Shown here in pieces: positions 8,229 through 54,338 of a DNA stretch of 61,050 bases. This stretch comes from Candidatus Berkelbacteria bacterium (GTDB lineage Bacteria; Patescibacteriota; UBA1384; XYA2-FULL-43-10; CAINNR01). The stretch lies in contig JAPLVG010000023.1 of NCBI GenBank assembly GCA_026397235.1, forward strand, positions 1-61,050, given 5' to 3'. Within the stretch, counting starts at the first letter, position 1. Each line of letters begins with the position of its first letter. The translations under genes were made by a program, and so were the position numbers. The notes beneath the pieces are model-generated. The model was not told the DNA's origin, did not search any database, and saw only the letters and a list, made by a program, of their open reading frames with translations.

Positions 8229-11200
8229 ATGCCAAAATTAGAAGTTAAGGATGCGGTCAATGTTACCGACTTCAAATCGATGAGGATTTCTGTTGCCTCA
8301 CCAGATGACATCCTTTCTTGGTCTCATGGTGAAGTTATGAAACCAGAAACGATTAATTACCGAACTCAGAAACCAGAGCGCGATGGTCTTTTTGCTGAGA
8401 ATATTTTTGGTCCGACTCGGGACTGGGAGTGTTATTGTGGAAAATATCGCAAAGTTCGTTATTCCGGAGTCGTTTGCGATAAATGCGGTGTCGAAGTTAC
8501 CAAATCATCTGTTCGCCGTATCCGCATGGGCCACATCGACTTAGTTGTTCCAATCGCTCATATTTGGTATGTACGAAGCGTCCCTTGTATTATGGGTCAA
8601 ATTCTTGATCTCTCTTCGTCTGATCTGGAAAAAATTATTTATTTTGCCAGTTTTGTAATAGTTGATGTTAATGAAGAATTGCGCCAGGAAATTTTAACTA
8701 GAGTTGAGAGTGAATTTACCAATATGAAAGATGAGAAAACCTCTTCGGCAGATCCAACAATTTCATCTGCTTCAAAAGATATTACTGCTGAAGAAATTAA
8801 TCAGGCTTATAAGACCGCTAAATCACAACTTGAGTCACTCAAAATTGGAAAAATCATCTCTGAGCGTGATTATTATAGTTTGTCGCATAGTTATGGCAAT
8901 GTTGTTCGAGTTGGCATTGGTGCTGAAGCGATTTTGGAACTTTTGGAAAAAATTGATGCTGACTCAGAAATTAAAAAACTTGAAGAACAAGCTGCATCAT
9001 CAATCGGATTACAAAAACGCAAAATTGTTAAACGCATCAGAACCTTGCAAGGGTTAAAAGCTGCCAGCTTAAAACCGGATTGGCTTGTTCTTCGACGATT
9101 ACCAGTTATACCGCCGGATCTTCGACCGATGGTTCAATTAGACGGTGGTCGATTTGCCGCTTCAGATTTGAACGATTTATACCGTCGTGTTATCAACCGA
9201 AATAATCGCCTAAAACGACTTATTAACCAGGGTGCACCTGAAGTTATTTGTCGAAACGAAAAACGCATGTTGCAGGAAGCTGTTGATGCTTTAATTGATA
9301 ATTCAGCCAGGCGTGGTCGGGCAACTACTACCGCCAATAATCGTCGAAAGCTGAAATCACTCTCAGACATGCTTCGAGGCAAGCAGGGCCGCTTCCGCCA
9401 AAATCTACTTGGAAAACGTGTCGATTACTCCGGCCGATCGGTAATTGTCGTCGGTCCGGAACTTAAACTTCATCAATGCGGTTTGCCGAAGGTGATGGCT
9501 ATGGAACTTTATAAACCGTTTGTTATTGGTCGGCTAATTTCTGAAGGCTATGTTCATAATGTTAAGAATGCTACCAGATTGATTGAAAAAAATGAACCTT
9601 TCGTCTGGGATATTCTTGAAGATATTACCAAAGATTCGCATGTACTTTTAAACCGTGCCCCAACGCTTCATAGATTGGGAATTCAAGCATTTCAGCCGAT
9701 TCTGATTGAGGGCAAAGCAATAAAAATTCATCCGCTTGTTTGTCCAGCTTTTAATGCTGATTTTGATGGTGACCAAATGGCTGTTCATTTACCACTGTCG
9801 GCTGAAGCTCAAAGAGAAGCCAGAGAAATTATGCTTTCAAGGAAGAATCTTCTAAAACCATCATCTGGTGAGCCGGTTATTTCTCCAACACTTGATATGA
9901 TTTTGGGCTGCTACTTCTTGACCACAATTGGAGAAGGCAGAACGGGTGAAGGCAAAGTTTTTGCTTGCAAAGAAGATGCGCTTTTGGCTTATGATTCAAA
10001 AATCATCGACCTTAAGGCCAAAATCAAAGTTAGAATCGATGGTGAGATGCAAGAAACTACTGTCGGCAGAATTATCTTTAGTGCCATTATTCCCGTGGAA
10101 CTTGGATATCGAAATCAGGATTTTGACAAACCAAGTATCTCTAAATTAATTGCAGAGTCGTTCAAAAAATCTGGACTTGATTCTACCGCATCCTTCGTTG
10201 ATCATATTAAGGAGTTAGGTTTCCGCTATGCTCAAATGTCCGGAATTACTTTTTCAGCTTTCGATATTCAAGTTCCACCGCAAAAGAAAGCAATTTTGAC
10301 AAAAGCTGAGAATCAACTTGAGATTATCAATCAACAATATAGACGCGGTTTAATTACTGAAGAAGAAAGATACGCCAAAACGGTTGAAATCTGGATGAAT
10401 GCTCAAGGTGAACTACAAGAGGCAATGTTGGCAAACTTTGACAAAGACAATGATATCAATATCATCCGAGTCTCTGGCGCACAGGGAAAGGTTTCCCAGC
10501 TCAATCAGTTGGCCGGCATGAAGGGTTTGGTTGCTGATCCAACCGGTAATATTATTGAATTGCCGATTAAATCAAACTTTAAGGAAGGTTTATCTGTGTT
10601 TGAATATTTCGTTTCGTCTCACGGTTCGCGAAAAGGACGAGCTGATACAGCTCTCCGAACCTCTGAAGCAGGATACTTGACTCGCCGATTAGTTGATGTT
10701 TCACAGGATACTGTAATTACTTCGCCTGATTGTGGTACCAAGAGAGGTGTTATTATCAGTAAAGATTTTTATCAATCACTAAATGATGATTGGGCCAAAC
10801 ACTTGATTGGTCGAAATTTAAATAAAGAAGTTGCCGGTTTTCCAAAAAATACTTTAATTGACGCCGCGGCTTTGGAGAAGATTTTGGCGACTGGCGTCAA
10901 AGAAGTTGAAATTCGATCACTTTTAGTTTGTGAACAATCATGGGGAGTTTGCCAACATTGCTACGGAGAAGATCTTTCAACCGGCAGATTAGTTGAAATT
11001 GGCTCGGCTGTTGGTATTGTTGCCGCTCAAGCTATTGGAGAACCAGGGACTCAGCTTACTATGAGAACCTTTCATACTGGTGGTGCGGCTGGAGTTGATA
11101 TTACTGCTGGTTTGCCGCGAGTCGGTGAGCTTTTTGAGGCTAGAACTCCGCGCTTGGTTGCTGTAATGTCTGAAATTGACGGCAAGGCCAACATCCGAAA

Positions 11201-28114: not shown

Positions 28115-28441
28115 TAAATGAAATTAAAACGATATTATGTCTATTTGATGGTGAATCCTGCAAACTCTGTAATCTATGCCGGAGTCACAAACAATTTAAT
28201 TCGACGTGTGTTTGAACACAAGTGTAAGTTTATTGAGGGATTTACCAAAAAATACAATACAACAAAAGTAGTATATTGGGAGTGTTTTGATGATGTGAAA
28301 TCAGCCATAAATCGCGAGAAACAAATTAAATCAGGTTCCAGGCAAAAGAAAATTGATTTGATAATAAAACATAATCCCAAATTTAATGATTTGTACGGGG
28401 ATCTTTTGTAAGATTGCTTCGTCGTTCCTTCTCGCAATGAC
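28070..28441 (+). mobile_element. GTCAT...ATGAC hairpin element carrying a GIY-YIG ORF in its apical loop (filled copy)
   Basis: Outer arms GTCATTGCGAG (28070-28080) / CTCGCAATGAC (28431-28441); inner arms GGCAATCT (~28106-28113) / AGATTGC (28411-28417). The ORF lies exactly between the inner arms; an empty copy is at 56452-56555. Confidence 0.7.
28118..28411 (+). CDS. Small GIY-YIG nuclease-family protein
   Basis: 97 aa; YYVYLMV...VIYAGVTNNLIRRVFEHK...REKQIK matches the GIY-(x10)-YIG, R, E pattern. Confidence 0.85.
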   Translation: MKLKRYYVYLMVNPANSVIYAGVTNNLIRRVFEHKCKFIEGFTKKYNTTKVVYWECFDDVKSAINREKQIKSGSRQKKIDLIIKHNPKFNDLYGDLL

Positions 28442-37244: not shown

Positions 37245-38252
37245 ATGGACAAAACGCCTAAAAACCAACTAAGCATTTTGATACGTTTTAGTTTTTGTGA
37301 TAGTAACGCTCAAGCAATAGACCTTTATACCAGAAATGCCTGTGTGCTAGCTCAAGCTGAGATAATAACATTTATATTAGGCGGACTCTGCCCCGGTGAG
37401 CCATTTGAAATTTTGACTTTACCACCTCAAAGTGGCTCATTCAAAGACTTAACAGTTGTAAAATTGTTAAATAATAACACAGGCTGCGTTGCAGCATTAA
37501 GCGTTTTGCTTATGGCGCTCCTGTTCAGCAGCCAGTTGAAAGTTAATAATACAACTTCAGACTTGAATGTTCTGGAGATTGTTGAAAAATGCAAAAACTA
37601 TGGAGTGAGTGAGGAGCTCACTGAAAAAGTGAAAAATATATGCAGCTCTTACTACCCTAAAAAACAGAAAAACATTTTCTATGAATCTGTAATAGCTGAC
37701 GAAAGTGTGACGAGCATCAAGCCAACGATAACAGAAGACCACGAAACTTTTGAAAAAGAAATTAATAGAAGTGATTTTCGAGAATTTATTGAAGAAATAC
37801 CGAAAGAAAAAGAATACTTGAAAACGGATTTATTGGGTCATATTCAGTTATCGCAGCCATTTATTGAAAAGCAGCAACAATATGGCAGGGGTGTTGCCTG
37901 GAAAGGGATGTATTTTGGCGAGGATGTAGTAGATGATCGAGGTGAAATAATTATTGAGGATGGCGAGAACATATTTTTCTACATGCAAGATGATGAATAT
38001 AAGGATCAGATATTAAAGCAAGAGGTCTCGTTTACTAGCGGTGATAATATCGGAGTCATTTTTGATGTTAATAGATATTATGATTACATTGAAAGTAGAT
38101 ATGGAAAGCCAAGATTGTATGTAAAAAAAGTGACATCTCATAATGATAACCTAGTTGAGCATAAGAAAGAATTGGAGATTAAAAGACAAGTCGTAAAGAG
38201 AGAAAAGCAAAATAAAAATCAAAAGTCGCTATTTGAGAATATTGAAACATAG
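37245..38252 (+). CDS. Hypothetical protein (one hydrophobic segment, acidic C-terminal half)
   Basis: 335 aa; no family recognised. Confidence 0.55.
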   Translation: MDKTPKNQLSILIRFSFCDSNAQAIDLYTRNACVLAQAEIITFILGGLCPGEPFEILTLPPQSGSFKDLTVVKLLNNNTGCVAALSVLLMALLFSSQLKVNNTTSDLNVLEIVEKCKNYGVSEELTEKVKNICSSYYPKKQKNIFYESVIADESVTSIKPTITEDHETFEKEINRSDFREFIEEIPKEKEYLKTDLLGHIQLSQPFIEKQQQYGRGVAWKGMYFGEDVVDDRGEIIIEDGENIFFYMQDDEYKDQILKQEVSFTSGDNIGVIFDVNRYYDYIESRYGKPRLYVKKVTSHNDNLVEHKKELEIKRQVVKREKQNKNQKSLFENIET

Positions 38253-38500
38253 CGTTAATACGGCAACAAAATTCTTAATAAAGATAGGGATCCAGCGCCA
38301 GTTGTAAATAATTTGGACAATAATTATGCAAAAACTAATTCAAGAATTTTTGAGAGTTAGGGATTTGCCCTACAGAATTCCACTTTCGTACGAAGATATC
38401 GAACATTATCAAAAAATTATTGTCGTCCTAGTCGAAACCAATCTGATTATGAAAGAAATCGACGAGGTTGTCGTTTTGTAAATAATGGTTACAGTTCTAT

Positions 38501-38529
38501 TGACAACTATATTTACATATATTATACTC
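38501..38529 (+). promoter_or_regulatory. Consensus sigma70-like promoter for the DUF2188 gene / TA module
   Basis: TTGACA (38501-38506), 17-nt spacer, TATACT (38524-38529); AAAGGAG SD before ATG 38556. Confidence 0.65.
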
Positions 38530-38555
38530 AGGGTAATTAACAAAGGAGTGTAATT

Positions 38556-38789
38556 ATGTCCGGTAAACAAATCTGGGTTTCGCCGGCTGATGACGGCTGG
38601 CGCGTTCACAAACCAGGAACAGTGAAAGATTCTGCTCGTACTGATACTAAAGCAGAAGCACTAGAAATCGCTGAAAGGATTGCAAGGAATCAAAACTTAG
38701 ACACAAAGGTTCAGCGAGCCGATGGTAAATTGTCAGCAGAGGGGAATACATACCCTCGTTCGCGAGACAAGTTTCCGCCACGAGGTTAG
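38556..38789 (+). CDS. DUF2188-family small protein
   Basis: 77 aa; WVSPADDGWRVHKPG...TKAEALEIAERIARNQ...RADGKL pattern. Confidence 0.7.
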   Translation: MSGKQIWVSPADDGWRVHKPGTVKDSARTDTKAEALEIAERIARNQNLDTKVQRADGKLSAEGNTYPRSRDKFPPRG

Positions 38790-38829
38790 TCAGTGAAGTG
38801 AATAATATAAATTAGCAGGAGGGGCTATC

Positions 38830-39585
38830 ATGAATTATTTTAAGAAATTGTTATTGGAGAAAAAAATTTCGCACGAGAAGCTTGCGGATATTTTTGGTAT
38901 TTCTCGTCCGACAGCCGCTAAAATCGCAAACGGTGATAAAGAAATGACCATAACAGAGCTGAGAAGGTTGGCAGAGGTGCTTGGAATTTCTGTTGACGAA
39001 GTGCTGGGTGAGAAGACGTCCGAAATTGTTTTAGAGTGTCCAAAGGAGAAAGCCAAGCCAACAGAACGAATCAGTGTTCCAGCAGAAGATGCTGAAAAAT
39101 TTAAGAATGTTCTGCTTTACATTACTCAAAAAATTGGAGCTCTTCCTAATGTTGGTCAGACTGTTCTGTATAAAATTTTATATTTCTGCGACTTTGATTA
39201 TTATGAGAAATTTGAAGAGCAACTTACTGGTGCACGGTATATCAGAAATCATTATGGGCCGACTCCAGTTGCGTTTGCAAAAATCGTTAAAACTATGATA
39301 ACTGCTGGAGAAATTGAAGAAGTAAAAACCAAATATTTCAATAAGGAACAAACCAAATATATCCCTGTGATCGAGCCGAACTTATCTGTATTGTCAGGGC
39401 AAGAGCTTAAACACATTGATGAGGAAATTGAGAAATTGGGAGGAATGACTGCTACTGAATTGTCGAACTTGTCCCATAAAGATGTACCCTGGATCGTCAC
39501 AAAGGAAGGGGATGAAATTCCTTACGAAACTGCTTTTTACAGAACACCTGACACCTCGGTAAGGGATTATGATGATAGTTTATAG
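38830..39585 (+). CDS. XRE-HTH + Panacea (DUF4065) domain antitoxin-like protein
   Basis: 251 aa; HTH ISHEKLADIFGISRPTAAKIANG; LYKILYFCDFDYYEKFEEQLTGARYIRNHYGPTP resembles DUF4065/SocA. Confidence 0.75.
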   Translation: MNYFKKLLLEKKISHEKLADIFGISRPTAAKIANGDKEMTITELRRLAEVLGISVDEVLGEKTSEIVLECPKEKAKPTERISVPAEDAEKFKNVLLYITQKIGALPNVGQTVLYKILYFCDFDYYEKFEEQLTGARYIRNHYGPTPVAFAKIVKTMITAGEIEEVKTKYFNKEQTKYIPVIEPNLSVLSGQELKHIDEEIEKLGGMTATELSNLSHKDVPWIVTKEGDEIPYETAFYRTPDTSVRDYDDSL

Positions 39586-39952
39586 CAAGCATCCAAGATT
39601 CGAAAAGCAGTTGAAAAAACTTCTAAAGAAGTATAGAACCCTGGAAGACGATTTGTTGATTGCCAAAAAAGCTGTAATTGAGCTATCACATGTTAATAAA
39701 ATCGACAACAGATCAGTTGAATTAGTTCCAGGATTTGATCATCAAGAAATTCAAATTTTTAAGATTAAGAAATTTGCCTGTAAAGCACTCGTTGGCAAAG
39801 GTGTTAGGAGTGGAATCCGAATTGTTTATGCATATTTTCCCGAACAAAATCATGTTAAATATTTAGAAATCTATTACAAAGAGAAAGATAACACGGATAT
39901 GGATTATGATTTTGTCAAAAATTATGTAGCAGAAATTATGAAGAGAACATGA
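39569..39952 (+). CDS. RelE/ParE-superfamily-like toxin partner
   Basis: 127 aa; overlaps the upstream gene by 17 nt; GIRIVYAYFPEQNHVKYLEIYYKEKD resembles the RelE/ParE-fold C-terminal strands. Confidence 0.6.
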   Translation: MMIVYSKHPRFEKQLKKLLKKYRTLEDDLLIAKKAVIELSHVNKIDNRSVELVPGFDHQEIQIFKIKKFACKALVGKGVRSGIRIVYAYFPEQNHVKYLEIYYKEKDNTDMDYDFVKNYVAEIMKRT

Positions 39953-39997
39953 CCATGCAATTCGAGTCCATATTACAATAACTATTATATAGAAAAT

Positions 39998-40042
39998 ATG
40001 AGCGAATATTACAAAGCAAATCGTGATTCATTTATTAGATAA
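39998..40042 (+). pseudogene. 14-codon remnant of the 5' end of a PD-(D/E)xK (Cas4-like) gene
   Basis: MSEYYKANRDSFIR*; the first 8 codons match the intact gene at 43741 (MSEYYKANR). Confidence 0.5.
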
Positions 40043-40090
40043 TATTATGAAAGATTATAAGATTTGGACAGGTAGAGAAAGATTGATTTC

Positions 40091-40687
40091 TTGCAAACCA
40101 ACCAAAAAATAATAGCATTCAATTTTATGGAAAAGCTCTCCTGCAATCTTGATAATACTAACTGGGAGAATATTCGGGTTGGGGCTCGGAAGTATATAGC
40201 CATAATGCAGATGGTTAAGAATACGAATGTTCGAACAGACGAAAGTTTTCGTAGAGCGTTTAATGGATTTTATCGTATAAGGCAGAGATCAAAAGAGTTT
40301 TACGATTTCCTTTATGAATATCTGGAAAGAAATAAAGAAATTAATACTTCTTTCAAACAAACATTATATTCTTTCTATGAGAAGTTTCAGCGTCTTGAGC
40401 CTTCATTTTCGAGTAAGATCGTAGCGACAATCAATCCAAACTTTCCTGTTTGGGATTCGGAAGTTCTGGCTAGGTTTGGGAAGAGAACACTTGGACATAA
40501 TTTAAACAAGGATATTAGACTGAAGGAAATGGTTAAAATATACAGTGAAATATCTGATTGGTATGCCGAATTTTTAGAAACTGACCAAGCAAAAGCAATG
40601 ATTGGATTGTTTGACCAAAAGATCGGCAAGCTAGAAATTACCGACATTAAAAAAATTGATTTAATTCTCTGGCAAACTAGGTCATGA
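40091..40687 (+). CDS. Hypothetical protein (start uncertain: TTG 40091 or ATG 40127)
   Basis: 198 aa; no family recognised with confidence. Confidence 0.5.
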   Translation: MQTNQKIIAFNFMEKLSCNLDNTNWENIRVGARKYIAIMQMVKNTNVRTDESFRRAFNGFYRIRQRSKEFYDFLYEYLERNKEINTSFKQTLYSFYEKFQRLEPSFSSKIVATINPNFPVWDSEVLARFGKRTLGHNLNKDIRLKEMVKIYSEISDWYAEFLETDQAKAMIGLFDQKIGKLEITDIKKIDLILWQTRS

Positions 40688-40782
40688 ATTCTGAATTAAT
40701 CAAAAAGAAAAGAAATACTATGTATAAACTTTCACCATCAGACTTTGCTTACTTGTACAAAGATTGTAAGCTTTGCTATTAG
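40684..40782 (+). pseudogene. N-terminal fragment of a second Cas4-like/PD-(D/E)xK-family gene ending at an in-frame TAG
   Basis: MNSELIKKKRNTMYKLSPSDFAYLYKDCKLCY* ; the S..F......C..C(F/Y) pattern parallels ISRSKLENFMNCSRCFY of 43741-44514. Confidence 0.4.
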
Positions 40783-40820
40783 TTAAAAATTAAACATGAC
40801 ATCACCCGCCAAAGGATTCT

Positions 40821-40865
40821 ATTCCACTTCTATGCGGAGTTTACCCTGTGGGAAGTATAGTAGTG
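40821..40865. repeat. Left copy of a ~45-52-bp inverted repeat
   Basis: The reverse complement CACTACTATACTTCCCACAGGGTAAACTCCGCATAG... matches 42728-42763 at 33/36 positions. Confidence 0.85.
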
Positions 40866-40936
40866 AAATACTGTGTCGGAGACACAAAAAGCTGGTATGG
40901 GTGTTTATGTAAATATCAATATATGACTTATAACTT

Positions 40937-41671
40937 ATGAAACCACAATATGATCTAGAGAAAATTAAGCTTGGAATTGATGAAGGAACGTGGAAGCGCG
41001 CAGTTGCTTTGTACGAATCTAATGCGGTGGAAAACTTCCGGGTACAATTTGGTGATTTTTTCGCGAAAGTAATTGGCGGCGAACCATATAATGTTTTTGT
41101 TTCATCGAAAGTTTATGACGAGGGCAATTGTAATTGTTATCTTGGGCGAAGTGAAATTTTGTGCAAACACATGGTTGCAGTCGCTATTTACGCTGTTAAA
41201 GGTGGACGCAAATTAACCAAAGAGGAAAAGGAATTGAGCCATCAGGTTGTGTTTAGCGGATTAGTTGGTGAACTAACAGAATTAGAATTAACCAATGTTA
41301 AAACAAATATCACAGCGTCACTTAAATATATTAAGTCTTACCATGGTCCCTCTCGGAGTTGGTTTCAATATCAAAATTCACTTACCGAGGGCTGTAATCG
41401 CTTAGCAAAAATTGTTTCTGGATTGCCTATATGCCCGCACACTTCGAGCATTCTAGTTGACTTGTTATTGCGGGCTGACAAGAAATTAACAGCTAGCGGC
41501 ATAGATGATTCAGACGGAATAGTTGGGGCATTCATTGAGGCGGTAGTGTTGTTACTCATGGATTTTTCAAAGTTAGATAAGAATTGTATAAAAACATTTT
41601 CGAAGTTAGTCGGCAAGGAAACCTGTTTTGGCTGGGAGTCCCCACTTTTAGAAATATATGATTCTTTATAA
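40937..41671 (+). CDS. SWIM zinc-finger protein
   Basis: 244 aa; CNCYLGRSEILCKHMVAVAIYA (CxC...CxH SWIM signature). Confidence 0.75.
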   Translation: MKPQYDLEKIKLGIDEGTWKRAVALYESNAVENFRVQFGDFFAKVIGGEPYNVFVSSKVYDEGNCNCYLGRSEILCKHMVAVAIYAVKGGRKLTKEEKELSHQVVFSGLVGELTELELTNVKTNITASLKYIKSYHGPSRSWFQYQNSLTEGCNRLAKIVSGLPICPHTSSILVDLLLRADKKLTASGIDDSDGIVGAFIEAVVLLLMDFSKLDKNCIKTFSKLVGKETCFGWESPLLEIYDSL

Positions 41672-41690
41672 TGGTTGAGATTTGTAATAG

Positions 41691-42441
41691 ATGAAAAGAA
41701 AAAAAATAACACAGAAAGAGCGGCGCACGATTGTTGAAAGTGTTGTCGGTAATGTGCCATGGGAGCAATTTACCCCCGGAATTTATAATAATTGTGATCG
41801 TTGGTGTGAGCGGTGCAGCAAAACTGAGAAATGTTATTTATTTTTTGAAGAGAAAAAAGAAGAGAATCGACGAACAAAAAGAAAAAAAGCCAAGAGATAC
41901 CGCTGGATCACTTAAAAAAGTTGGCGAATCACTTGGGCAAGTAAAGGATTTGATTCAGAAAATTTGTGATGCTGAAGGCATTGATGTTTCCATGACGCCA
42001 GAAGAGGAAGCTGAATATGAAAGAAGAGAGAAATTAACCGATCCGCACAATGATCCGATCGCTATCAGAGCCAGTAGATTATCAAAGTCAATATATAAAT
42101 GGTTGGATTCTGTACCGTCTCTAGACATGGTGAAGTATCAAGAAGCCTACGACCAAGTTTCTTGGCATTGGTCGCTGATTGGAGTAAAAACTGCGATGGC
42201 AATCCATTGCCAAAAGGAAACAGAAATTGAAGAAGGAAGTTCAAGAAAATTTGCCTTGGATCAACAACAGAAGTACAGCTGGATGGCTTATCGCTCGACC
42301 CAGATTTGCAAAAAAGGTTTTGAATTAATGGATGGCTATGTAAAAGATTCCAGAATAAGGCCCATTATTGATGAGAGTCAGAAATTAATGGGTCTAATCG
42401 ATAAAAAATTGTTGGCAACTGATATAATAATAAAGCAATGA
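41691..42441 (+). pseudogene. Cys-rich/helical protein gene requiring a +1 frame change in an A-rich tract
   Basis: ORF 41691-41915 (CDRWCERCSKTEKC...) and ORF 41731-42441 (+1 frame) overlap; plausible coding sense switches frame between ~41845 and ~41912, where A6, A5 and A7 runs occur. Confidence 0.5.
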
Positions 42442-42555
42442 CAGCGAGAGAATTAATGAAAATTAAAGGGTTCGAATTTGACGGGTTTATACGCTAAGAA
42501 AGAGTTTTAATCTTACGGAATCCCATAACATTAAAAAACTAAACTAGGAAAAAAT

Positions 42556-42717
42556 ATGTCAGATTATTACAAAGCAAATCGAACAAAAAATATCTTTGAT
42601 CCTAAATCGGATCAGGCTTTTAAGATCTCTAGAAGCAAACTGGAAAAATGTATTGTGGTTTGTCAGGTCGGTACGGTTAAATCAGCTTTCACAATTAGTA
42701 GAATAAAAAGAGTATAG
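42556..42717 (+). pseudogene. Truncated 5' copy (~30 codons of homology) of the Cas4-like gene
   Basis: MSDYYKANRTKNIFDPKSDQAFKISRSKLEK... parallels MSEYYKANRTKNLYDPKNDQAFKISRSKLEN of 43741, then diverges and stops at 42715-42717. Confidence 0.6.
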
Positions 42718-42727
42718 AATGATACGC

Positions 42728-42779
42728 CACTACTGTACTACCCACAGGGTAAACTCCGTATAGTAATAATAGATGGAAT
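42728..42779. repeat. Right copy of the inverted repeat
   Basis: CACTACTGTACTACCCACAGGGTAAACTCCGTATAG...GGAAT; partner at 40821-40865. Confidence 0.85.
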
Positions 42780-42883
42780 GCCGTAGCTGTTCCGCTTCTT
42801 ATATGTACTTTTCTATATACAAAACCATTGAAAATAGGTTAGAATAGGTATATAATCGGTTGAATTAATATATTGGGAGAATC

Positions 42884-43078
42884 ATGACTGCAAAACAAGC
42901 AGCACAACTTATTTCAAACATCAAAGCGGCAAGAGAAACTATTTCAGAGATGACGCCCGCACAGAGAAAAAACCTCGAGAGATCGTGGGATGTTGAGCAT
43001 GCCTATTATTCCAGTTCTTTAGAGGGCAGCAATATAAGTAGAAAAGAATTTAATAAAATTGCAGAAGATGTAAAATAA
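42884..43078 (+). CDS. Fic-inhibitory antitoxin-like small protein (class I FicA/VbhA-like)
   Basis: 64 aa; contains S-x-x-x-E-G (YSSSLEGSN), the inhibitory-helix motif; directly upstream of the Fic gene. Confidence 0.6.
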   Translation: MTAKQAAQLISNIKAARETISEMTPAQRKNLERSWDVEHAYYSSSLEGSNISRKEFNKIAEDVK

Positions 43079-43084
43079 AGTCTG

Positions 43085-43738
43085 ATGATAACTCGGCCTA
43101 AAGACAATAAAGATCTGGAAAAACGAGCGGCAATCGGAGTAATCCGTGCCGCTCGTTTTGTAAGAAGATACGCGAAATCAAACAAAGTAATTGATGTCTC
43201 AACGATAAGACTTGTTCACAAAGAAATTTGGAGAGATGTTTGGCCAGAAATTGCTGGAGAATACAGGATCGAAAATCTGGAAATTTCGGGATCAAGTTTG
43301 CAGCTACCACATTTTAAAGATGTGCCTAAATTAATGGAGAAGATGGACATTGAGTTTGCTAAAAAAATTAGCAAAACAGGTGATGAATGTAGGGGTGTGA
43401 TCGCAGACTTCGGTGAAATAAATGACGAATTGATAAATTGTATTGATAAAGTTGTTTCTTTGTCTACCTGGGTTCACCATAAGATAACTTTTATTCATCC
43501 CTTTCGAGAAGGAAATGGAAGAACGGCTAGATTGATAGCAAATCTAATTTTAGAACGATATGGTCTGGTCGGTATTTCAGTAAAGGTCGAGCGTGAAAAC
43601 AAGGATGCTTATATTCAGGCACTATCTCAAATTGACAAGATGGCTGACTATGAGCCATTAAAAAATTTAATTTACAAAGGGTTAGCTGAGAGGTATGAAG
43701 GAGTCGCAATGAAATATTATCCATTTGCCAAAGGTTAA
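43085..43738 (+). CDS. Fic-domain protein (AMPylase-type toxin)
   Basis: 217 aa; HPFREGNGRTARL active-site motif. Confidence 0.9.
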   Translation: MITRPKDNKDLEKRAAIGVIRAARFVRRYAKSNKVIDVSTIRLVHKEIWRDVWPEIAGEYRIENLEISGSSLQLPHFKDVPKLMEKMDIEFAKKISKTGDECRGVIADFGEINDELINCIDKVVSLSTWVHHKITFIHPFREGNGRTARLIANLILERYGLVGISVKVERENKDAYIQALSQIDKMADYEPLKNLIYKGLAERYEGVAMKYYPFAKG

Positions 43739-43740
43739 AA

Positions 43741-44514
43741 ATGAGTGAATACTACAAAGCAAATAGGACAAAGAATTTATACGATCCGAAGAATGATCAG
43801 GCTTTTAAAATCTCCAGAAGCAAACTAGAGAATTTTATGAACTGTTCGCGGTGCTTTTACATTGACAGAAGATTAGGGGTTGGCACACCACCAGGGTTTC
43901 CATTTAACTTAAATTCGGCAGTCGATACCTTGCTGAAAAAAGAGTTTGATATTTTCCGCAAAGAAGGCAAAAAACATCCGCTAATTGAAAAATACGGTGT
44001 AGATGCTCGGCCGGTCAGCCATGAAGAATTGGACAAATGGCGTGAGAATTTTGTTGGTATTCAATATTTACACCCAGAAACCAACTTTCTAATTACCGGT
44101 GCCATTGATGACTTGTGGATTAATTCTAAGGGTGAATACATTGTTGTTGATTATAAATCCACATCCAAAAATGGTGACATTGTCGCACTAGATCAAGCCT
44201 GGCAGAGTGGCTACAAAAGGCAGATGGAAATTTACCAGTGGTTGCTACGGAAAAATGGTTTAAAAGTATCAGATACGGGTTACTTTGTTTACTGCAATGG
44301 TGTTACCGATTGCGACAAGTTTGATAACAAGCTGGATTTTGAAATATCCCTAATTGCTTATGATGGTGACGATTCCTGGGTTGAGGATACTATTATAGAA
44401 GCTCACAAATGCCTTTGTTCGGACAAAATCCCTAGCGCCAATCCGGAATGCGATTACTGCAACTATGTATCTGCCGTTTCTGTCATCTCCAATACCAACT
44501 CCACAACCAAATGA
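43741..44514 (+). CDS. PD-(D/E)xK nuclease with Cas4-like four-Cys arrangement
   Basis: 257 aa; N-terminal CSRCFY, GAIDDLWINSKGEYIVVDYKS (D...D-x-K), QMEIYQWLL, C-terminal C...CDYC. Confidence 0.8.
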   Translation: MSEYYKANRTKNLYDPKNDQAFKISRSKLENFMNCSRCFYIDRRLGVGTPPGFPFNLNSAVDTLLKKEFDIFRKEGKKHPLIEKYGVDARPVSHEELDKWRENFVGIQYLHPETNFLITGAIDDLWINSKGEYIVVDYKSTSKNGDIVALDQAWQSGYKRQMEIYQWLLRKNGLKVSDTGYFVYCNGVTDCDKFDNKLDFEISLIAYDGDDSWVEDTIIEAHKCLCSDKIPSANPECDYCNYVSAVSVISNTNSTTK

Positions 44515-44522
44515 TTATGCCG

Positions 44523-44549
44523 CACTACTATACTTCGAAGTGTAGTAGT
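44523..44549. repeat. Near-perfect palindrome sharing the CACTACTATACTTC word with the inverted repeats
   Basis: CACTACTATACTTC|GAAGTGTAGTAGT; the first 14 nt are identical to the reverse complement of 40852-40865. Confidence 0.8.
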
Positions 44550-44566
44550 AGAATATAGTTTAGAAA

Positions 44567-44848
44567 ATGTCAAAAAAGGGAATTGATTCCGAATCAAAAA
44601 TATTGCTAATAGAATCGCTGAAGAAATTGAAAAGCGATGAGTTTATTGATTTTCTTGAATCATTAATGTCGTCAACCGAAATTAAAAACATTTCCCGGCG
44701 GACAATGGCGGCAAAGCTTTTACTGGAATATAATACATATGAGGATGTTGAGTTGTTGATGGGCATGTCGCCCGGTACCATCAACAAAATCCATTTCAAA
44801 ACCAAAGGAAGCCCGGCATTTAGAAAACTATTTACCAAAAAGGATTAA
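44567..44848 (+). CDS. TrpR/YerC-YecD-like small DNA-binding protein
   Basis: 93 aa; ...EFIDFLESLMSSTEIKNISRRTMAAKLLLE...GMSPGTINKI resembles the Trp-repressor-like family. Confidence 0.65.
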   Translation: MSKKGIDSESKILLIESLKKLKSDEFIDFLESLMSSTEIKNISRRTMAAKLLLEYNTYEDVELLMGMSPGTINKIHFKTKGSPAFRKLFTKKD

Positions 44849-44888
44849 TCTGACACTTCGATGCTTCGAATTATAGAAATGGAAAAAC

Positions 44889-45794
44889 ATGAATAATTTA
44901 CTTTCTGACAAAATAATTGTTGATGTTGACACGGGCATTGATGATGCGCTAGCGATTTTATTGTTGGCGAACAAAGCGTCCGACAGAATACTTTGGTTTA
45001 CAACTTGTGGAGGTAATGTTGGCGTTTCACAGACAACTAAAAACACTTTGGCGGTCTTGGAATTGATTGGTTCGAATGTTCCTGTTTACAAAGGCTCGGA
45101 TAAAAATCTTGCTGGAGAAGGTTATATTTTCGCTTACGATTATCACGGCAGAAATGGAATTTGTAATGTCGAGTTAACAAATAGTCGGACTGTGTCAGGT
45201 GATGCGATGAGCTTTATGAAAAAAAGTATTGATGAAAACGGCGGCCAGATTTCGTTTCTTTGTTTAGCTCCTCCAACCAATCTGGCAAAGACTCTCAAAG
45301 AATCCCCAGAGCTAGTGAAAAAAATAAATTCAGTTGTACTAATGGGAGGAGCGTTGAAAGTTTCTGGCAATCAAACAGAAAAAGCCGAGTTCAATTTTTT
45401 TCAAGATCCCTTAGCCGTGGACATTATTTTAAAAAGTGTTAAAAATGTTTATATTGTTCCCCTTGATATTACAAACAGATGTTTAATAGCCGAGCAAGAT
45501 ATTAATGACATCTCCTCAAATTCGGCCCAGGTCAAGTTCTTTAAGCAAGCAATAGAAAATTGGTATGAGTTTTTTGGTAGACCAAAAAATCGAAGTTTCG
45601 AATTATATGATCCGTTAGCTGCCGCGGCAGTTTGTTCTGATGTGCTGAAGTTTGAACGGGAAAGAATTGATGTCGTAATGTCTGGTCAAAATCGCGGTGC
45701 TCTTATTTCCGGCGGTAAAACTGAGGTTAGCCTCGCTACAGACTGCGATGAGATAGAATTTATGGAAATGTTTTACGGTGCTTTCAAAAAGTGA
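44889..45794 (+). CDS. Inosine/uridine-preferring nucleoside hydrolase family protein
   Basis: 301 aa; N-terminal IIVDVDTGIDDALAILLL (DxDxxxDD) signature. Confidence 0.9.
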   Translation: MNNLLSDKIIVDVDTGIDDALAILLLANKASDRILWFTTCGGNVGVSQTTKNTLAVLELIGSNVPVYKGSDKNLAGEGYIFAYDYHGRNGICNVELTNSRTVSGDAMSFMKKSIDENGGQISFLCLAPPTNLAKTLKESPELVKKINSVVLMGGALKVSGNQTEKAEFNFFQDPLAVDIILKSVKNVYIVPLDITNRCLIAEQDINDISSNSAQVKFFKQAIENWYEFFGRPKNRSFELYDPLAAAAVCSDVLKFERERIDVVMSGQNRGALISGGKTEVSLATDCDEIEFMEMFYGAFKK

Positions 45795-45888
45795 ATTGGC
45801 TCATGTATACGATGGTGAAATGGAATATTGAGATTATAATCACTTTGTGCTAGTATTAAAGCAGTCTAAACAACGAATTTTTTAGTTA

Positions 45889-47163
45889 ATGGATACACTG
45901 GCGAAAATTTGGCAGTATAGGGATTTGCGCAACAAAGTTCTCGTAGTTGCAGGTCTTTTAATTTTGACTCGAGTTATTTCACATATACCACTACCTGGTG
46001 TTAACCTTGAACAACTTCGGGCCTTTTTTGAAAATAATCAAATTTTTGGACTTCTAAATATGTTCTCTGGTGGTACAATGAGCTCATTTTCTATTGCTTT
46101 AATGGGAGTTGGGCCGTATATTACTTCATCAATTGTCTTTCAGCTTCTAACCATGATAGTCCCGCGTCTGGAAGAAATACAGAAGGAGGGTGAGGCTGGC
46201 CGTAATAAAATTAATCAATGGACCAGGCTTCTCACTGTTCCTTTGGCAATTGTTCAAGGATATTCAATGTTATTCTTGCTGCGTAGCCAGGGCATTATTC
46301 CGACTTGGACGATTTATCAATTAATAATTATGCTGATTTCCATTACCGCTGGCACCTTGGTTCTAATGTGGATTGGTGAAATTATTACCGAAAAGGGGAT
46401 TGGTAATGGTTTATCTTTGATAATCTCAATCGGCATTTTGGCCAAACTTCCGTCATCTATCCGCAATACAGCATCACTTATTTCTGTTGCTGACACGACA
46501 AAGATTATTGAAATGCTGATTTTCGTCATCATTACGATATTAATTATTGGCGCTATTGTTCTAATAACCGAAGGCCAACGCAATATTCCAGTTTCCTATG
46601 CCAGAAAATCCCGCAACGCCAGTTCATATTCCAGCATCAATTCGTTTTTGCCGATTAAGGTTAACACCGCCGGTGTTATCCCAATTATCTTTGCCATGAG
46701 CCTAATGATTATCCCTGGTGTTGTTGCTAAGTTTTTTGTCAGTGCAACCACACCTTGGGTTGCTCACGCCGCCAGTGTGACCGAAAACTTGTTCAAGAAT
46801 AATTTGTTTTACGGAGCACTGTACTTTGTCTTAGTTGTTGCCTTCACTTACTTTTATACTTCAGTTGTTTTCAAACCGGATCAGATTGCCGAAAACTTGC
46901 AAAAACAGGGTGGATTTGTCCCGGGAATTCGGCCGGGTAGCGAAACAATTCATTTTCTTGGTAATATTATTGTTCGTATTACCTTAACATCATCAATCTT
47001 TTTAGGCCTAATCGCCGTCTTGCCATACATAATGCAAGCAGTAACCAATGTTAACACTCTGGTTATTGGCGGTACTGGAATTTTAATTGTTGTATCGGTT
47101 GTCATTGAAACAATGAATCAATTGCAAGCACAATTGACAATGCATACGTATGAAAACTACTAA
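45889..47163 (+). CDS. secY: Preprotein translocase subunit SecY
   Basis: 424 aa; multi-TM, typical SecY N-terminus and GGFVPGIRPG motif. Confidence 0.97.
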   Translation: MDTLAKIWQYRDLRNKVLVVAGLLILTRVISHIPLPGVNLEQLRAFFENNQIFGLLNMFSGGTMSSFSIALMGVGPYITSSIVFQLLTMIVPRLEEIQKEGEAGRNKINQWTRLLTVPLAIVQGYSMLFLLRSQGIIPTWTIYQLIIMLISITAGTLVLMWIGEIITEKGIGNGLSLIISIGILAKLPSSIRNTASLISVADTTKIIEMLIFVIITILIIGAIVLITEGQRNIPVSYARKSRNASSYSSINSFLPIKVNTAGVIPIIFAMSLMIIPGVVAKFFVSATTPWVAHAASVTENLFKNNLFYGALYFVLVVAFTYFYTSVVFKPDQIAENLQKQGGFVPGIRPGSETIHFLGNIIVRITLTSSIFLGLIAVLPYIMQAVTNVNTLVIGGTGILIVVSVVIETMNQLQAQLTMHTYENY

Positions 47164-54213: not shown

Positions 54214-54338
54214 GTCATTCCCGCCGATTCGACTCTGAGCCCGGAGCAAAGGCTCACGGTTCGAAGAGCGAAGGCGGGAATCTACTATTAGTGGATCCCC
54301 GAATAGGTCGGGGATGACTCAACTATTAAAGTTGAGTC
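54214..54338. repeat. GC-rich compound hairpin element (GTCATTCCCGCC...GGGGATGAC) plus adjacent hairpin
   Basis: ATTCCCGCC (54217-54225) / GGCGGGAAT (54273-54281); GAGCC/GGCTC inside; ATCCCCGA (54295-54302) / TCGGGGAT (54308-54315); GACTCAACT (54316-54324) / AGTTGAGTC (54330-54338). Confidence 0.75.

Follow-up and report, generated by a model that had tools for sequence, protein, structure and literature searches.

Inverted repeats around a SWIM gene cassette in a Berkelbacteria genome are probably separate copies of a palindrome that accompanies a TrpR-like gene

The stretch of DNA analysed here (hereafter the window) comprises 61,050 nt, positions 1 to 61,050 of the forward strand of contig JAPLVG010000023.1 of a Candidatus Berkelbacteria bacterium (GenBank assembly GCA_026397235.1). 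The genome under study, referred to as G000, is assembled in 28 contigs with a total of 925 kb and is 99.7% complete; the comparison set consisted of 162 genomes of the class (handles beginning with G) and was complemented by a metagenome-wide scan for the repeat units described below. The window carries an 18-kb accessory island (27.7-45.8 kb), the gene content of which is of the defence and toxin-antitoxin type (Bro-N, Ssn, EcoRI-type methylase, GmrSD-HNH, HTH-Panacea and Fic). At 40.8-44.9 kb the island contains four copies of a palindrome, P1 to P4, that delimit three cassettes: a SWIM gene with a broken Cys-rich gene and the remnant of a Cas4-like gene; a Fic pair with an intact Cas4-like gene; and a TrpR-like gene (Table 1). 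P1 and P2 constitute the left and the right arm of an inverted repeat that encloses the first of these cassettes. We consider it probable that they are separate, complete copies of the palindrome associated with the TrpR-like gene and not the two ends of a larger element.

The arms at 40830-40865 and 42728-42763 are 36 nt long, 92% complementary (33/36) and separated by 1862 nt. With one 2-nt gap, the local alignment reaches 40818-40865 and 42728-42773 and scores 60, while no more than 26 was obtained for any of 300 shuffled sequences; the inverted repeat that the initial annotation had noticed between the 40821-40865 region and 42728-42763 is thus confirmed as far above chance, whereas the terminal GGAAT match that it had added is a 5-mer, the significance of which is not demonstrable. 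An 18-nt core, CCCACAGGGTAAACTCCG, is the same in both arms and, with up to three mismatches allowed, unique to them in the window (0.03 occurrences expected; 0/100 shuffles). Comparison of the 101-nt region of the left arm with the whole 925-kb assembly returned only itself and the right arm. The 14-mer CACTACTATACTTC occurs again at 44523-44536, as had been observed initially, where it forms one arm of the palindrome at 44523-44550. The link drawn between the repeat and this palindrome, which stands 3' of the Cas4-like gene, proved to be correct and is the key to the interpretation.

Each arm of the inverted repeat is a whole unit in itself, in which the 11-nt arms of a 28-nt palindrome surround a nested 17-nt module, GGAGTTTACCCTGTGGG. 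P1 reads, in this order, CACTTCTATGC, GGAGTTTACCCTGTGGG, AA and GTATAGTAGTG; its 11-nt ends are mutually complementary and are the same as those of P3, in which CACTACTATAC and GTGTAGTAGTA enclose the centre TTCGAA (44523-44550). P1 and P2 are P3-type palindromes with the 6-nt centre swapped for a module of 16-17 nt, and their arms conform to the half-site consensus. The initial suggestion of a long hairpin whose loop had acquired genes does not agree with this structure, since each arm is already a complete palindrome and not half of one. P1 is situated 72 nt upstream of the SWIM start codon, P2 is found 10 nt beyond the stop of the Cas4-like remnant, and P3 lies 8 nt after the stop of the intact Cas4-like gene and 16 nt before the TrpR-like start. 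P4 is separated by 5 nt from the stop of the TrpR-like gene and by 7 nt from the nucleoside hydrolase gene that comes next.

Table 1 Features of the P1-P4 region and its surroundings (window coordinates; ORF, open reading frame; PWM, position-weight matrix).
Feature	Position	Strand	Remarks
5' end of Cas4-like gene, shortest of three copies, ~26 nt, ATGAGCGAATATTACAAAGCAAATCG	39998..40023	+	Direct-repeat family D2; translation interrupted after MSEYYKANR
198-aa ORF, part of the stretch upstream of the left arm	40091..40687	+	No Pfam, NCBIfam or PADLOC match; 58%-identical homologue in G039
P1, chimeric palindrome (left arm)	40818..40865	+	5' arm CACTTCTATGC 40825-40835; module GGAGTTTACCCTGTGGG 40836-40852; 3' arm GTATAGTAGTG 40855-40865
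SWIM zinc-finger protein, 244 aa	40937..41671	+	PF04434; N-terminus matches PADLOC candidate PDC-S62
Cys-rich gene (CxxCxxCxxxxxC), frameshifted in A-rich run ~41870-41915	41691..42441	+	Two overlapping ORFs
Remnant of second Cas4-like copy	42556..42717	+	Direct repeat D1, 102 nt at 76%; tblastn
P2 (right arm)	42718..42773	+	Left flank AATGATACGC 42718-42727; 5' arm CACTACTGTAC 42728-42738; module reversed 42741-42757; 3' arm GTATAGTAATA 42758-42768
Best sigma-70-like promoter match of the region, TTGAAA-17-TATAAT, 11/12, before the Fic pair	42828..42856	+	Consensus match only
Two-gene Fic module: 64-aa partner 42884-43078 and Fic/DOC protein 43085-43738	42884..43738	+	PF02661; PADLOC PDC-S04 and SoFic
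Intact Cas4-like PD-(D/E)XK nuclease, 257 aa	43741..44514	+	PF12705; Cas4 models below cut-offs
P3, plain 28-nt palindrome, half-sites CACTACTATACTTC and GAAGTGTAGTAGTA	44523..44550	+	12/14 pairs; PWM census
TrpR-like (YerC/YecD-type) DNA-binding protein, 93 aa	44567..44848	+	PF01371 and others
P4, degenerate palindrome copy, half-sites CACTTCGATGCTTC and GAATTATAGAAATG	44854..44881	+	10/14 pairs

The gene between P3 and P4 encodes a protein that matches PF01371 (Trp_repressor) with 27.8 bits against a cut-off of 27. Its profile detects the PDB entries 3g1c, 3kor and 3frw at E values of about 1e-10, and the top Foldseek matches of its AlphaFold2 model (pLDDT 89.7) are all TrpR or TrpR-like, with TM-scores of 0.6-0.74. 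The score against TIGR02531 (30.9) is below the cut-off of 42.2; the protein is therefore assigned to the TrpR family, but the status of YerC equivalog is not established. The association of the gene with the palindrome was surveyed in the 40 flanks of 20 TrpR-like genes from 13 genomes of the class, at a threshold of at least 9/14 pairs. The 28-nt palindrome is present in 39/40 flanks, and the 40th has a long-loop form with a 22-nt central insert (G005:C1). Its distance from the start codon of the TrpR-like gene is 12-43 nt; on the other side, it mostly follows the stop by 3-16 nt. While the consensus is YACTWCNNTACTNN followed by NNAGTANNGWAGTR, the centre and some arm positions vary with the gene lineage: paralogue-specific centres are TTCGAA, TACGTA, TGCGCA, TCTAGA and TTGCAA, accompanied by arm variants, and in G021 a variant (CACTCCCGCACTCT followed by AGAGTGCGGGAGTG) is found on both sides of the TrpR-like gene. 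The gene is patchily distributed, being extant in 15/162 genomes of the class in up to three diverged copies; it is absent from the three other genomes of the genus, and an 84%-identical copy is present in a genome of another family. TrpR-family repressors, including HisR (YerC), bind 20-bp palindromes (PMC9413887). The palindrome is most likely the operator, a duplex site, of the dimeric TrpR-like protein. No description of a TrpR-fold gene bracketed by its own palindrome was found in the literature searched.

The palindrome is also dispersed through the genome. A half-site position-weight search of the 925 kb, in which a central gap was allowed (P1 was recovered with a gap of 17), yielded eight strong and two degenerate copies (P2 and P4), against 0-1 in shuffled controls. 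Four of the ten copies (P1-P4) are clustered within 4.1 kb. The other six follow a stop triplet by 2-12 nt, in the frame of the upstream gene (including the recO stop on contig C1), with the exception of the copy on contig C27, where the preceding stop triplet is out of frame, the copy being inside a gene. At this position (G000:C27:13780-13807) the palindrome is inserted in frame into a miaB-like radical-SAM gene (...LISNFSTVQYGSEKPK...), adding eight residues to the protein. The insertion is present in 5/13 genomes (G000, G004, G005, G006 and G008) and absent from G001, G003, G007, G009, G012 and G014-G016; in the G005 copy a further 45-nt G+C-rich insert occupies the centre of the palindrome. 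The site 3' of recO is likewise polymorphic: it has the plain palindrome in G000, G002 and G008, a chimeric one in G003 and none in G001 and G004. Between G002 and G003 the flanks at recO are near-identical, yet three arm positions and the centre differ, which suggests replacement of the whole unit. Close relatives have thus gained, lost or exchanged copies at orthologous sites. Nested insertion has its hotspot at the palindrome centre, and one of the inserts derives from hairpin repeats of the Ssn nuclease family.

Immediately beyond recO and its palindrome, a convergent, markedly G+C-rich gene follows both in G003 (L015, G003:C1, 5880-6800) and in G000 (L133, G000:C1, 2290-2520). These genes differ between the two genomes, and each has a strong G+C-rich terminator hairpin.

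As to the inverted orientation of P1 and P2, positions 42718-42739, which comprise the left flank of P2 and its 5' arm, can be aligned in direct orientation with the corresponding part of P3 (44510-44534). The 3' arm of P2 agrees with the 3' arm of P3 at 9/11 positions, but at only 7/11 with the 5' arm of P1 when the latter is reverse-complemented. Judged by these alignments, the outer parts of P2 are a paralogue of P3, and only the module and the inherently palindromic arm bases match P1 in the inverted sense. The 36-nt inverted repeat comes about because the modules point in opposite directions and the palindromic arms match either way round; two flipped copies of a palindromic unit can thereby mimic terminal inverted repeats. 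The initial annotation had named similarity by paralogy of decayed genes as an outcome that would speak against its readings, and this applies to the right arm, which is located at the 3' terminus of a decayed paralogue of the Cas4-like gene and has its left flank in common with the palindrome behind the intact gene. We propose that the Cas4-like gene was duplicated together with its palindrome, making P2 a paralogue of P3, and that P2 was later converted to the chimeric form, with its module in the direction opposite to that of P1. The module could have been acquired through conversion of an existing palindrome by a chimeric copy, as seems to have occurred at recO in G003, or it could have changed direction through a flip of the centre between the arms. 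Since the module shifts the half-sites 13 bp further apart, binding of the repressor at P1 and P2 is probably weakened or abolished.

The module itself, searched for as GGAGTTTACCCNGTGG, was found at 11 sites in 7/162 genomes of the class (reversed control, 0). At 8/11 of these sites it occupies the loop of an NTS/SRM-type hairpin, always in the same orientation (GATTCCCGCC, module, GGCGGGAATGAC), an arrangement that also occurs in Saccharibacteria and in another Berkelbacteria genome. NTS repeats are bound and cut by Ssn nucleases (PMC11893778); the module-bearing hairpins are variants of the NTS repeat, and an Ssn-type GIY-YIG gene with its own repeats is located in the same island (28118-28411). 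The presence of the module inside a TrpR-type palindrome is, as far as known, confined to this genus, with three copies (P1, P2 and the recO copy of G003). A 26-base degenerate pattern of the chimera had a single match in the metagenome collection, again the G003 locus; a 16-base pattern, GGAGTTTACCCNGTGGG, is unspecific, with about 277 chance hits expected and few true hits to the candidate phyla radiation (CPR) among the matches listed. The arms of P1 and P2 (CACTWCTATRC/GTATAGTAGTG) are not NTS arms of the GTCATTCCCGC...GCGGGAATC type, and only the loop module is common to the two kinds of repeat. A nested module common to two repeat systems is a new detail, and the chimeric form that P1 and P2 represent is specific to the genus. 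Tentatively, the 16-17-nt module (GGAGTTTACCCWGTGG) might even be a unit in its own right, whether a very small insert that is mobile or convertible or a motif recognised by a protein, and might move between the centres of unrelated palindromes, here from the Ssn/NTS-type loops in which it usually resides across the CPR phyla into the TrpR-like operator. If so, the module would rewire or disable the operator, creating a chimera that spreads within the genus, and P1 and P2 would record cross-talk between two repeat-plus-protein systems in a very small genome.

Several further observations concern the module and related hairpins. The decamer ACCCTGTGGG has 23 copies in the 925 kb against about two expected; within the window it occurs only at 40843 and 42741, and sites outside it include C3:91719-91774, C1:38180, C5:6314, C10:57114, C15:39227 and C23:10072. 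Most copies share a core that consists of TCTTCC, a loop and GGTGACCCTGTGGGC, with a co-varying 2-bp stem (CC/GG, GC/GC, GT/AC, AGC/GCT) and loops of the GNRA type (GAA, GACA, GATA, GCAA, GTAA). Repeats of the GTCATTGCGAGGAGG type (Ssn SRM-like) have their arms interrupted by some of the copies, while others form a subgroup on the antisense strand, some 40 nt ahead of gene starts. When 20 other loci of the decamer were compared with Rfam, only a sub-threshold match to FtrB was obtained. Another case of nesting at a palindrome apex is found at 54214-54283 of the window, in the form of an NTS-type hairpin (GTCATTCCCGCC...GGCGGGAATCT) whose loop measures about 50 nt. At locus L224 (G112:C70, about 10806-10821) two tandem modules, each after ATTCCCGCC, are followed by a canonical NTS hairpin, which suggests that the module and the left NTS arm can be duplicated locally. 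A small ORF that starts in the module (GTG at 40847) was discarded as a candidate gene, its peptide being conserved over only seven residues between G000 and G003.

In an alternative function, the palindromes would act as RNA or single-stranded DNA hairpins (3'-end stabilisers, terminators, processing sites or NTS/SRM-like nuclease targets), P1 and P2 being hairpins with an enlarged loop. We regard this as unlikely. It is consistent with (i) the constant orientation of the sites, which follow stop codons by 2-16 nt; (ii) compensatory changes between copies, such as T-A to C-G between P1 and the G003 copy; and (iii) the derivation of the module from Ssn-type hairpin loops, with an Ssn gene in the same island (PMC11893778). 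Across the 39 gene-flanking copies, however, in which 82% of the positions are Watson-Crick symmetric, the non-Watson-Crick pairs have no strand bias (G-T 26, A-C 26, other 48). On the sense strand G-U mismatches do not outnumber A-C mismatches, and the variable positions pair at chance, with half-site positions 7-8 close to the level that base composition predicts. The stems are weak and rich in A+T: folded as single-stranded DNA, P1 (-4.0 kcal/mol, z = -0.5) and P2 (-4.1, z = -0.6) are no better than shuffled sequences, and P3 reaches -5.8 (z = -2.5). No intrinsic terminator was called at P1-P4 and no U-tract is present, the sites being followed by AAAT and not by T-runs; a known structured RNA was also rejected, with no Rfam match at E <= 1 in 38000-47000. 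Moreover, one copy of the palindrome, that of the miaB-like gene, is translated. The absence of strand bias among the mismatches, the weak folds and the lack of a terminator favour a site recognised by a protein in the duplex over a base-paired helix.

A second alternative, to which we give little credence, holds that the palindromes are recombination sites, similar to integron attC or to dif, at which a recombinase captures cassettes, so that P1 and P2 would be the junctions of one cassette. Palindrome-delimited arrays do exist, both here (P1-P4) and on contig L219. The copies on either side of TrpR-like genes are direct repeats, with similarity that reaches past the palindrome (G025 and G005:C42); many copies are made up of two unlike half-site variants, which would be expected of hybrid sites; and both here and in G021 inserted genes are preceded by a repeat of the Cas4-like 5' end. 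However, among the ORFs of the island, to which this search was confined, there was no Pfam match to an integrase, recombinase, invertase or transposase family; the sole gene constantly linked to the palindrome encodes a helix-turn-helix (HTH) protein devoid of a catalytic domain; none of the cassettes was observed at a second site; and the inverted orientation of P1 to P2 is unlike the product of an insertion by a tyrosine recombinase.

The mobile cassette envisaged in the initial annotation retains some of its substance, as the repeat family behaves like a mobile element and delimits gene cassettes, but the two arms as one functional pair are unsupported. It is very unlikely that they are the terminal inverted repeats of a 1.95-kb non-autonomous element, either foldback or of the type of miniature inverted-repeat transposable elements (MITE-like), that brought in the SWIM and Cys-rich genes. 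The inverted match is well above chance, the site belongs to an accessory island and the palindrome family shows insertion/absence polymorphism, all of which such an element would explain. Yet no direct repeat adjoins the arms, the flanks (...CCAAAGGAT before TCTATTC... on the left, TGGAATGCC after ...AATAGA on the right) having none in common that could represent a target-site duplication. Neither another 1.9-kb unit nor another arm pair was found in G000, in the 162 genomes of the class or in the metagenome-wide scan, and the island has no transposase by Pfam. The SWIM homologues of G005, G030, G037 and G040 and the SWIM and Cys-rich pair of L222 are unbracketed, which speaks against the supposed transposon ends. 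The P2 flank and outer arms are, besides, explained by the paralogy with P3, and the Cas4-like remnant inside the segment belongs with P2. It is likewise very unlikely that the segment 40866-42727 is inverted by site-specific or homologous recombination between the arms as a phase-variable switch, since, despite inverted repeats with an identical 18-nt core 1.86 kb apart, no invertase or recombinase is encoded in the island, a homology of 18-36 nt is short for RecA-type inversion, a single orientation was assembled, and the genes inside and outside are co-oriented, so that a flip would put SWIM antisense for no obvious gain. Two simpler candidates were rejected: a CRISPR repeat (36 nt, beside a Cas4-like gene), there being only two copies, inverted, 1.86 kb apart and in no array; and a fragment of a tRNA or att site, as there is no tRNA in the window.

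Certain observations weigh against our own interpretation, according to which P1 and P2 are separate copies of the operator-like palindrome. P1 and P2 are closer to each other (33/36, module 18/18) than to any other copy, and a direct copying event between them is likely. Copies behind stops and inside a coding sequence are odd for an operator and suggest a second role, selfish or structural. A consensus scan gave no convincing promoter at P1 or P2, the signal not being above that of shuffled sequences. A recombinational role of the pair retains some, if small, probability. Lastly, that the TrpR-like protein binds the palindrome is something that we infer.

The bracketed segment holds, as the initial annotation stated, the SWIM and the Cys-rich genes, but it also holds the 5' fragment of a second Cas4-like copy (42556-42717). 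In this remnant, homology to 43741-43838 extends over the first ~100 nt (30 aa, 87% identical), the remaining part being unrelated; the intact Cas4-like protein has homologues of 70-76% identity in about ten relatives. The frameshift of the Cys-rich gene, which comes with a small insertion, is genuine: the gene is truly broken, because intact homologues of 237-241 aa exist (P0013 and P0015), which cover both ORF parts. None of the four SWIM homologues (in G005, G030, G037 and G040) has the Cys-rich partner. In G005 one palindrome is located upstream of SWIM, because a TrpR-like cassette precedes SWIM there. The exact SWIM protein is on record for no other contig. In L222 a Cys-rich homologue follows a 544-aa SWIM protein, without a palindrome, and SWIM and the Cys-rich gene may constitute a two-gene unit. 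The order on contig L219 is palindrome, TrpR-like gene, palindrome, Cys-rich gene, HicAB, another gene and a third palindrome.

With regard to the neighbouring genes, the Fic/DOC gene and its 64-aa partner are adjacent also in G001, a genome of the same genus (L161, G001:C12, 3406-4241; 45% and 58% identity), and are probably a Fic toxin with an antitoxin-like inhibitor. The 5' end of the Cas4-like gene (26-100 nt) is repeated at 39998-40023 and 42556-42653, upstream of the intact copy (43741-43838), with unrelated genes between the repeats. G021 has the same layout (L008, G021:C53, 3211-3288), consisting of a Cas4-like 5' fragment, two inserted genes and the intact gene, and the Cas4-like 5' end may be a place where cassettes repeatedly insert or duplicate. 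A short ORF at 40720 (MYKLSPSDFAYLYKDCKLCY, followed by a stop) has what we take to be a resemblance to the N-terminus of PD-(D/E)XK proteins and was considered as a sign of coding paralogy for the left arm as well; no significant homologue was found in 41 relatives.

The analysis removes a false lead for annotation, as this locus most probably harbours neither a 1.9-kb foldback transposon nor an invertible switch, and it is instead a clear case of a TrpR-fold gene bracketed by its own palindrome. If the protein binds the palindrome, the two would represent a simple regulator-operator pair that can be read from sequence in the genetically intractable CPR bacteria, and at the same time an example of a transcription-factor site that behaves as a selfish repeat.

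Among known systems, the closest in protein fold are TrpR of Escherichia coli (trp/aroH/trpR operators) and HisR of Firmicutes (YerC/YecD; PMC9413887), with which the present system shares the TrpR fold, a lineage-specific site and a palindrome of ~20-28 bp directly before the regulator's own gene, as in the autoregulated trpR. In contrast to these, the stop of the gene is invariably succeeded by another copy, and more copies are dispersed after unrelated genes or, in frame, within a gene; the TrpR-like gene is patchy and multi-copy, it has no link to tryptophan or histidine genes, and the operator role of the palindrome is putative. The Ssn nucleases with NTS/SRM repeats (Chenal et al. 2025, PMC11893778) offer a parallel in the small gene flanked on both sides by its own repeat, in the dispersed gene-less copies and in the 17-nt module of P1 and P2, which otherwise resides in the loops of NTS-type hairpins. 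Here, however, the gene encodes an HTH regulator and not a GIY-YIG nuclease, the arms are not NTS arms, and there are about ten copies and not hundreds. The palindrome-delimited array differs from an integron attC array in that the island has no integrase family.

Repetitive extragenic palindromes (REP), their mosaic arrangements (BIME) and the REPINs with their RAYT genes are short imperfect intergenic palindromes that follow stops, flank their cognate gene and co-evolve with it. The palindromes described here are similar in that they are found just after stops, flank a cognate gene and evolve together with it, but the flanked gene encodes a 93-aa TrpR-fold protein instead of an HUH/Y1 transposase, the copy number is low, and the members of a REPIN doublet are tens of bases apart, as compared with the 1.86 kb between P1 and P2. 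Rickettsia palindromic elements (RPE), of 100-150 nt, are reportedly inserted in frame in protein-coding genes and tolerated there. The insertion in the miaB-like gene resembles them in being a tolerated in-frame palindrome that is present or absent among relatives, and it differs from them in its length (28-45 nt) and in having a dedicated associated gene. Finally, IS1397 and ISKpn1 insert into the loops of REP palindromes. Although the pieces nested in the palindromes of this genus are 16-45 nt long, carry no gene and are not insertion sequences, their nesting takes place, as with IS1397 and ISKpn1, exactly at the palindrome centre, as exemplified by the module in P1, P2 and the recO copy of G003, the 22-nt insert of G005:C1 and the 45-nt insert in the miaB-like gene of G005.

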